Below are positions 33,097-33,672 of a DNA stretch of 64,000 nt, one piece after another. The number at the start of each line of letters is the position of its first letter. The stretch's first letter is position 1. Source of the stretch: Shigella phage sb3; the sequence record PQ666541; one strand, given 5' to 3'. The position numbers and the translations under genes are program-made. The notes below the pieces were generated by a model that saw only the letters and a list, made by a program, of their open reading frames with translations, had not been told where the DNA came from and made no database searches.

Positions 33097-33310
33097 ATTT
33101 TACTTCCTCACCTGTTCCCAAATCATATTCAACTAAACGAATAGGTTCATGAATGCCATATCCTTGAACAGAAATTTCTGTCGTAGGATAAATTCCATTA
33201 ATATCACCCATGTTCCACGCTTCATTAAATTGCTGTTCGCCTGAATTACTAAACCATTCGGCAAAAGCATTTAACACATCTTCAGAACCTTCAATAATTA
33301 TCTTTGCCAT
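33089..33310 (-). CDS. Hypothetical protein
   Basis: 73-aa ORF. Confidence 0.4.
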   Translation of the reverse strand: MAKIIIEGSEDVLNAFAEWFSNSGEQQFNEAWNMGDINGIYPTTEISVQGYGIHEPIRLVEYDLGTGEEVKYD

Positions 33311-33672
33311 TACAAGCTCTCAGTAAAGGTACGAGCGATAACGTCGCGCTGCTGTTCCGGAGTCAGAGAGTTAAAGCGAACTGCATAACCGGATACACGG
33401 ATGGTCAGCTGCGGATATTTTTCCGGATGCTTAACTGCATCTTCCAGAGTTTCACGACGCAGAACGTTAACGTTCAGGTGCTGACCACCTTCAATTTTAA
33501 CTGTAGGTTGTGTTTCAATTTCAATTTCACGGGCATGCAAACCATAGAAAATTTCTGGGTCTACAAAAGAGTCCTCTTTAAAAGTTTTAGAGACAATAAT
33601 TCTTGCTTGAATACCGTCTTCAAAATAAATAGTACCTTTATGCGTGCCTTCAAGAATTTGATATGCTTTCAT
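33310..33672 (-). CDS. Autonomous glycyl radical cofactor (GrcA/YfiD-like)
   Basis: 120 aa; C-terminal ...[59 protein letters not shown] carries the glycyl-radical motif RVSGY and matches enterobacterial GrcA as I recall it; 3' half is locally GC-rich. Confidence 0.8.

Follow-up and report, generated by a model that had tools for sequence, protein, structure and literature searches.

The vs.6 gene of T4-type phages encodes a small relative of GrcA (YfiD), the enterobacterial protein that serves as a spare glycyl-radical domain for pyruvate formate-lyase (PFL). In a stretch of 64,000 nucleotides (nt) from Shigella phage sb3 (sequence record PQ666541; hereinafter the window, meaning this whole stretch), the vs.6 counterpart is an open reading frame (ORF) with a mosaic structure, in which a phage-type 5′ half abruptly gives way to a 3′ half matching the grcA gene of Escherichia coli almost letter for letter. 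We propose that host grcA DNA overwrote the glycyl-radical half of an old phage gene, which we favor over the other explanations considered below at a probability of about 85%. The gene itself and the biochemical role of its product are already known, and the evolutionary pattern has a precedent in the psbA/psbD genes of cyanophages. The 120-residue protein of the window is likewise already public as an "autonomous glycyl radical cofactor", in a form common to 26 Tequatrovirus entries. A comparative paper goes no further than the Pfam match of the gene and a suggested nucleotide-metabolism role (PMC1524935).

Residues 61–120 of the vs.6 protein (EGGQHL...TESL, 60 residues) are the same as residues 68–127 of E. 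coli GrcA without a single difference. This likeness extends to the DNA: 183 of the 185 terminal nucleotides of vs.6 match E. coli grcA, in 5426 of the 5426 complete E. coli genomes searched. Within them, positions 33320–33494 form an unbroken match of 175 nt to a common E. coli grcA allele (100% to that of strain PV15-279), and this tract is at least 99% identical in 2823 of the 5426 genomes. It is the sole part of the window that matches E. coli chromosomes species-wide. The edges are equally distinct. Directly upstream of the tract the identity to grcA is 30/60 (50%), so that it steps from 50% to 100% at the boundary 33494/33495, and the 60 nt past the vs.6 stop codon agree with what follows grcA in E. 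coli at just 14/60 positions (23%). The last three sense codons hold two synonymous mismatches to E. coli, GAG instead of GAA at 33319 and TTG instead of CTG at 33315; these codons also vary among phages: T4 has GAA AGT TTG, RB69 GAG AGT CTA and the copy L004 GAG AGT CTG, with GAG AGT CTA being the form in older phage lineages. The idea that GAG and TTG are kept at this edge for the ribosome-binding site of the downstream vs.5 gene was set aside as speculation, T4 having GAA there.

The base composition switches along with the identity. The GC content is 49.7% in the 3′ half as compared to 32.2% in the 5′ half and 35.0% in the whole 64-kb window, and the GC content at third codon positions (GC3) rises from 0.18 to 0.47. 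Correspondingly, the codons ATT, AGA and CCA of the 5′ half are replaced by ATC, CGT, CCG and CTG in the tract. The tract belongs to the top 1% of 175-nt segments of the 64 kb in GC content, a value equaled at this segment length in only two other spots, one in the tRNA cluster and the other in the Gly-rich part of a gp12-like gene. The first-pass annotation, made from the sequence alone, had proposed an exact match of the C-terminal about 58 residues to enterobacterial GrcA/YfiD and described the 3′ half as host-like with about 50% GC, both of which are borne out by the above figures. The comparisons that it proposed gave concordant results: the nucleotide alignment with grcA returned the 175-nt perfect run, the composition and codon usage proved to be far from uniform with an abrupt change at the boundary, and over the first 157 nt of the domain T4 matches E. 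coli grcA at 155/157 positions as against 157/157 in the window. The 3′ end of pflB, the gene for PFL itself, was also considered as the donor. It matches vs.6 at only 144/183 positions as compared to 181/183 for grcA, indicating that the donor is grcA and not pflB.

Could such a match have been maintained without any DNA transfer, by strong purifying selection alone on the C-terminal domain? The glycyl-radical domain is indeed highly conserved in all lineages, and the RB16-type phages (L013 and L015) encode 60 C-terminal residues identical to those of E. coli GrcA, with 0 non-synonymous differences. Yet these same phages show 32 synonymous differences from E. coli grcA, i.e., a proportion of differing synonymous sites (pS) of 0.72, and the KP15-, CfP1-, PG7- and T5-type copies fall in the same, saturated range (pS 0.63–0.77). 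In contrast, the window tract displays 2 synonymous and 0 non-synonymous differences over about 45 synonymous sites (pS 0.044). Protein constraint is thus insufficient, since lineages with the same C-terminal protein have diverged freely at the sites that it leaves free. Selection on the protein also fails to account for the abrupt turn of codon choice and GC3 to the host type at the boundary, or for the Klebsiella phages discussed below, which match Klebsiella and not E. coli. Hence, we regard this explanation as practically untenable, being already refuted by the synonymous-site comparison, which in turn supports a recent DNA-level transfer from the host. Separately, the glycyl-radical halves of the RB16-type copies (L013/L015) and the KP15-type copies (L018/L019) share a common AT-shifted backbone and are distinguished by a single patch of about 25 nt, through which the protein has LLDAVEH (Klebsiella/Salmonella type) in place of EDAVKH (E. 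coli type); this patch could be an older short conversion that has since ameliorated.

The 5′ half is about 50% identical to E. coli grcA in nucleotide sequence, and the N-terminal half of the protein had initially been taken to be unrelated to GrcA. This view is contradicted by a weak but significant match to the GrcA N-terminus (33% identity over 40 residues, E=6e-6). Furthermore, the alignments of both the GrcA profile TIGR04365 and the YfiD structure 6OWR begin at about residue 20 of the vs.6 protein. Judging from these alignments, the 5′ half of vs.6 is a diverged GrcA N-terminus, the counterpart of its disordered region. In YfiD, residues 1–60 are disordered while residues 61–127 are structured and copy residues 693–759 of PFL (PMC8683613). 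The tract starts at GrcA codon 67, close to the border between disorder and structure; the host-identical tract thus corresponds to the structured domain and the phage-type part to the fast-evolving disordered region. In the Tequatrovirus Escherichia phage OES_C-2 (L206), vs.6 (at 229–585 of that record) is 357 nt rather than 363 nt long and falls out of register with the other copies upstream of the tract; its 3′ half has 98.9% identity with E. coli grcA.

The phage gene itself is old. The order vs.7–vs.6–vs.5 is kept in Tequatrovirus (T4), Mosigvirus (RB69) and Jiaodavirus (JD18), the 5′ half of the window copy is 90% and 71% identical in nucleotide sequence to those of RB69 and Jiaodavirus JD18, respectively, and full-length vs.6/GrcA homologues are found in T5-like, RB43/RB16-like, RaK2-like and Aeromonas phages. 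These observations bear on whether the whole gene was recently captured from the host with its 5′ half being later replaced or diverging fast. Such a course would sit well with the homology of the N-terminal half to the GrcA N-terminus and with the fast evolution of the disordered region in bacteria too (0.70–0.89 nucleotide identity between genera). However, the 5′ half has a phage composition, the same synteny and 71–90% nucleotide identity to Jiaodavirus and Mosigvirus, full-length phage-type homologues exist in distant phage families, and a jump in identity from 50% to 100% across a single codon is not something that divergence can create. We therefore consider a whole-gene capture highly improbable. 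As the gene is old and syntenic, and its 5′ half is of phage type and yet homologous to grcA, an existing homologous segment was in all likelihood overwritten, and the evidence supports the conversion of an old phage gene rather than its capture. The first-pass annotation had left both courses open as "gene conversion or capture"; the former stands, with the low pS, the sharp edges and the composition switch in its favor, whereas the latter is at odds with the age and synteny of the gene.

A second instance is seen in the Klebsiella phages of the genus Jiaodavirus, in which the 3′ half of vs.6 has 56% GC. A pattern scan of metagenome contigs yielded bacterial grcA genes, which encode exactly the K. 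pneumoniae GrcA (GRCA_KLEP7), along with one JD18-type phage contig, L170. Over the first 157 nt of the domain the window matches E. coli grcA at 157/157 and K. pneumoniae grcA at 139/157 positions, while the Jiaodavirus contig matches them at 139/157 and 157/157, respectively; between the two host genes themselves there are 20 differences in 183 positions. On the 5′ side the window and Jiaodavirus tracts have their boundary at the same codon, and the 3′ boundary lies about 25 nt before the stop codon in Jiaodavirus as opposed to about 10 nt in the window. This reciprocal pattern together with the differing 3′ boundaries speaks for two separate conversions. Thus, on comparative grounds, at least two independent conversions, each from the host genus of the phage concerned, can be regarded as secure. 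A third recent conversion was considered for a set of metagenomic phage contigs with a Pasteurellaceae-like grcA (L020–L025 and L032) and rejected, as these are only 78–84% identical and show no clear tract. Among them, L022 (an IMG/VR contig from a human metagenome) has a grcA homologue whose nearest match is the grcA of Haemophilus parainfluenzae (153/183 positions, including an exact run of 53 nt), which may reflect an older or partial exchange in Pasteurellaceae phages.

The composition of the two gene halves also gives the direction of transfer. E. coli grcA has a GC3 of 0.43 and 0.45 in its two halves, and host grcA genes are even across the halves in both GC3 and between-species divergence. 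Steps in GC3 occur in the phage genes only, from 0.18 to 0.47 in the window (E. coli 0.45) and from 0.23 to 0.62 in Jiaodavirus (K. pneumoniae 0.67). The transfer was thus from host to phage, because only the phage genes step in composition and each lands near the GC3 of its respective host. The reverse, wherein E. coli acquired the 3′ half of its grcA from a T-even phage, is exceedingly improbable. Shared polymorphism (see below) would by itself give no direction and is in this sense compatible with it, but E. coli grcA is uniform in GC3 and in its divergence from other enterobacteria, the discontinuity being in the phage gene, and the tract composition fits a different host in each of the two phage groups, E. 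coli or K. pneumoniae. Moreover, T-even infection kills the cell, so phage DNA would rarely be inherited by the host.

Host and phage pools further share polymorphisms inside the tract. Within E. coli, grcA varies at four synonymous sites of the tract (12, 24, 39 and 102), which we compared between seven E. coli genomes taken from across the identity range and 13 phage copies (16 for nucleotide diversity). All four E. coli variant alleles (4/4) are also present among the 13 phage copies, against a chance expectation of 0.67 (P~3e-4), and each of the five sampled E. coli haplotypes at these sites (5/5) recurs in phages: GTTC of E. coli O157 in the window; ATTC of strains 2-101 and UCPROB in T4, T2 and wV7; ATCC of K-12 in RB69; ATTA of O104 in PP01 and L005; and AATC of E371 in KIT03. 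ZN18 and Killian have recombinant-looking tract haplotypes. The KIT03 and window copies agree at 178/180 positions in the 5′ half but carry different host-type alleles in the tract. The synonymous divergence (dS) between Tequatrovirus and Mosigvirus falls from 0.35–0.39 in the 5′ half to 0.10–0.12 in the 3′ half, and none of the tract differences among the compared copies sets one clade apart from the other. Over 16 phages, the nucleotide diversity of the 5′ half is 0.059, as compared to 0.023 for the tract.

A more restrained account of these data would have a single conversion per phage group, one in the ancestor of the T-even coliphages and one in that of Jiaodavirus, followed by phage–phage spread and mutation with no continuing host exchange. 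Nearly all sampled E. coli Tequatrovirus and Mosigvirus copies bear the tract (629 records being 95–99% identical to E. coli), most of the differences from E. coli are private singletons, Tequatroviruses isolated on Yersinia retain the E. coli type, and T-even phages recombine freely among themselves, all of which would be expected under this account. It is harder to reconcile with the recurrence in phages of every sampled E. coli haplotype, the different host-type alleles of the near-identical window and KIT03 copies, and a tract that is about half as diverse as the 5′ half and devoid of clade-defining differences. We consider it rather unlikely, albeit by no means negligible, and place repeated host–phage exchange at the tract, as suggested by these comparisons, at about even odds or slightly better. 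By extension, the vs.6/grcA segment might be a standing "homology trap" at which virulent T-even phages recombine repeatedly with the chromosomes of their enterobacterial hosts, such that the gene evolves in concert with them; to us this proposal is as well balanced by doubts as by support.

Several points weigh against the conversion of vs.6 by host DNA or its repetition. The case for host-to-phage transfer at this locus is built from sequence comparison. T4 degrades the host DNA and carries modified cytosine in its own, which should lower the rate of any transfer, and laboratory propagation on E. coli strains could be the source of some of the conversions. The shared-polymorphism samples are small (7 host and 13–16 phage copies) and phylogeny was ignored in their analysis; recurrent mutation at hypermutable synonymous sites could have inflated the result. 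The equivalent test in Klebsiella was marginal, with 6/16 sites mirrored (P=0.07, third-position null). Since ZN18, one of the Yersinia-isolated Tequatroviruses, keeps an E. coli-type tract, conversion is not quick to track the isolation host, and the O157 phages wV7, KIT03 and PP01 do not have the O157 allele. As these three carry another allele, we also discarded the idea that the tract allele marks the isolation host, under which the O157-type allele of the window would reflect the infection of O157 by its relatives. The vs.6 protein scores 154.6 bits against TIGR04365 (spare_glycyl), as compared to 234 for E. coli GrcA, and thereby falls below the NCBIfam equivalog cut-off of 170 for GrcA, a shortfall that we attribute to its divergent N-terminal half; RefSeq names the phage vs.6 proteins GrcA despite this score. 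Finally, no description of a vs.6–grcA mosaic was found in the searchable full texts, which yielded just the function and remarks at the Pfam level and do not cover the older T4 literature, where a prior mention is possible.

Turning to function, the T4 orthologue Y06I, like YfiD, reportedly acquires a glycyl radical through the PFL activase and restores PFL that has been fragmented by oxygen (Wagner et al. 2001, cited in PMC8683613). In YfiD the C-terminal domain replaces the lost PFL segment, with the disordered N-terminus aiding binding and activation (PMC8683613). Residues 58–120 of the vs.6 protein (63 residues) align to PflB 697–759 (E=5e-26). By analogy with the orthologues, the host activase PflA would install a glycyl radical on Gly95 of the phage protein, and the radical-bearing C-terminal domain would then dock into host PFL cleaved by oxygen at Gly734 and restore its activity. 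The phage copy would thereby keep PFL repair supplied and host anaerobic pyruvate metabolism running in a microaerobic infection, and matching the host in this domain might bring a selective benefit. The first-pass annotation had envisaged a general backup of oxygen-damaged glycyl-radical enzymes, including the phage's own anaerobic ribonucleotide reductase NrdD. For PFL such a rescue is published for the T4 orthologue, whereas the window NrdD (13231–15060) has no similarity to the vs.6 protein (BLASTP E=2.6) and bears a C-terminal motif, RRTCGYLG, in a different sequence context; we therefore do not retain a role as an NrdD spare part.

As for how the tract might have been exchanged, the unconverted phage lineages are 78–84% identical to host grcA in the domain with exact runs of 18–29 nt. 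The tract would thus be confined to that part of the gene in which the phage and host versions were already alike enough to pair, and a plausible pathway is UvsX-type T4 recombination with fragments of the host DNA. T4 UvsX reportedly pairs very short stretches of identity (PMC8262927), and in T4 engineering edits arise at reported rates of 0.03–3% (PMC7588440). Once a first conversion had occurred, the segment would be a perfect substrate for more exchange: later conversions should be easier because the converted segment is fully homologous to the host, and the tract would extend no further because homology is lost on the upstream side at the domain boundary and on the downstream side at the stop codon. 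This would explain both the Klebsiella parallel and the recurring E. coli alleles.

The window derives from a T4-type phage (Tequatrovirus). Its vs.6 ORF is 98–99% identical to vs.6 of hundreds of Tequatrovirus records with KIT06 as the best match, the T4 record labels the counterpart as vs.6, and homologues of T4 lysozyme and endonuclease V adjoin the vs.6 region. The protein differs from T4 Y06I by two residue changes, T54P and R73H. It is a small stand-alone protein of about 14 kDa, flanked by separate genes on both sides and lacking the barrel of glycyl-radical enzymes. The PF01228 Gly_radical domain is detected at 67.2 bits (cut-off 22.2), the radical motif RVSGY lies at residues 92–96, and the PDB structure 6OWR (YfiD) aligns with the whole vs.6 protein at E=5e-42. 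Taken together, the architecture, domain, motif and N-terminal homology support its membership in the GrcA family. The coordinates of the gene, its parts and its neighbors are collected in Table 1; the assignment of Gly734 as the PFL radical site used there follows PMC8683613. The vs.6 stop codon overlaps the vs.5 start codon (TAATG), and the vs.5-like gene shows no similarity to host DNA. A scan for promoters and terminators around vs.6 gave a site count no higher than in shuffled sequence. In other records the labels of this gene are at times misleading: the vs.6 orthologue in the phage T2 record AP018813.1 (61057–61419; L216) is called a "tail sheath monomer" with tail tube and baseplate neighbors, an evident mis-annotation, and further labels are pyruvate formate-lyase, glycerol dehydratase radical and, for neighbors, deoxynucleoside kinase.

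Table 1. Features of the vs.6 region, in positions of the 64,000-nt window.
Feature	Position	Strand	Basis or remark
vs.6/Y06I coding sequence, 120-residue GrcA-like autonomous glycyl radical cofactor	33310..33672	minus	ATG start, TAA stop; ORF list
Phage-type 5′ half, codons 1–59 and first base of codon 60	33495..33672	minus	GC 32%, GC3 0.18
Probable host-derived conversion tract, 175 nt, encoding the structured glycyl-radical domain	33320..33494	minus	perfect match to an E. coli grcA allele
Mosaic 3′ edge of the tract, last three sense codons and stop	33310..33319	minus	2 synonymous differences from E. coli
Gly95 codon in RVSGY, predicted glycyl radical site (= GrcA Gly102, PflB Gly734)	33388..33390	minus	alignment to YfiD and PflB
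Shine-Dalgarno-like GAGG, 4 nt upstream of the vs.6 ATG	33677..33680	minus	sequence reading; putative function
vs.5-like gene, 73 residues, start overlapping the vs.6 stop	33089..33310	minus	ORF list; synteny with T4 and RB69 vs.5
Gene at the vs.7 position, 126 residues	33679..34059	minus	ORF list; assigned by T4/RB69 gene order alone

Some other features of the window are worth recording. A cluster of 10 tRNA genes lies at 41767–42598 on the minus strand (Arg-tct, Asn-gtt, Tyr-gta, Met-cat, Thr-tgt, Ser-tga, Pro-tgg, Gly-tcc, Leu-taa and Gln-ttg); T4 itself has 8 such genes. Its tRNA-Tyr stretch (41923–42016) matches about 260 E. coli plasmid records at 80–90%. The nrdD-like ORF mentioned above (minus strand) is a single uninterrupted frame of 609 residues, and the phage thus appears to be without the group I intron of T4 nrdD. 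A 52-nt stretch at 24264–24315 has a 96% match in only one of the 5426 E. coli genomes (strain BE104, in two places with no annotated feature), which may be an engineered or phage-derived insert. Lastly, positions 60917–61373, a Gly-rich region in the 516-residue gp12-like short tail fibre gene (ORF 60013–61563, plus strand), reach a GC content of at least 49.7% over 175 nt; no match to them was found among the E. coli genomes at megablast sensitivity, and at that sensitivity they are thus not host-derived.

T4 is usually seen as sharing almost no DNA with a host whose chromosome it destroys, but a 175-nt host-identical stretch is present in essentially all T-even coliphages, and Klebsiella phages have a counterpart that is identical to Klebsiella. 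Homologous exchange from host to phage thus occurs in nature in the T-even group, limited to a segment in which the older phage copy provided the homology. The locus offers a simple and tractable place to measure the frequency of recombination between a virulent phage and the host chromosome, and bears on how auxiliary metabolic genes stay compatible with the host proteins that they work with, in this instance PflA and PflB. In addition, the tract allele might mark the recent hosts of a phage. If the homology trap is real, the classical coliphage model would still be undergoing gene conversion from host to virus, with the tract allele recording its recent host history. For annotation, vs.6 is best read as a chimera, in which a close E. 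coli database match is no sign of contamination.

Among known systems, the closest is T4 Y06I, an orthologue in the same position between vs.7 and vs.5 and likewise of 120 residues. The window copy differs in carrying CAG (O157-type) where T4 has CAA and in the longer perfect match to E. coli noted above, and the rescue role known for the T4 protein would apply to the window protein by analogy. E. coli GrcA/YfiD (P68066; nuclear magnetic resonance structure 6OWR) has the same layout of a disordered N-terminal and a structured C-terminal glycyl-radical region with RVSGY. However, the vs.6 protein falls short of it by 7 residues, shares only about 33% identity with it in the N-terminal half, and is made by a virulent phage from a phage operon. 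In YfiD the N-terminus is important for activation and for the binding of cleaved PFL, so its divergent counterpart in the phage may differ in behavior. The C-terminal glycyl-radical domain of PflB (residues 693–759) shares the fold and function of the tract product (protein identity 49/61 columns, or 48/60 residues), but is part of a 760-residue enzyme, while the vs.6 product stands alone. T4 marker rescue and CRISPR-assisted editing involve the same assumed enzymology, with T4 recombining with cytosine-containing donor DNA in the cell. These are laboratory systems with multicopy plasmids, whereas vs.6 would represent the use of a single-copy chromosomal gene in natural infection. In cyanophages, the host-like psbA and psbD genes of T4-like phages recombine intragenically with the host copies resulting in patchy mosaics (Sullivan et al. 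2006, PMC1484495). Here too a T4-like phage has exchanged part of a host-like metabolic gene with its host, and the signatures of psbA-type conversion, namely excess nucleotide identity, sharp edges with a composition switch, and own-host matches from independent events, are all found in vs.6. Unlike the cyanophage case, vs.6 involves enterobacterial hosts and the T-even group, its tract is short, spans one structural domain and is 100% identical to a living host allele, and the same segment has been converted separately from two host genera.

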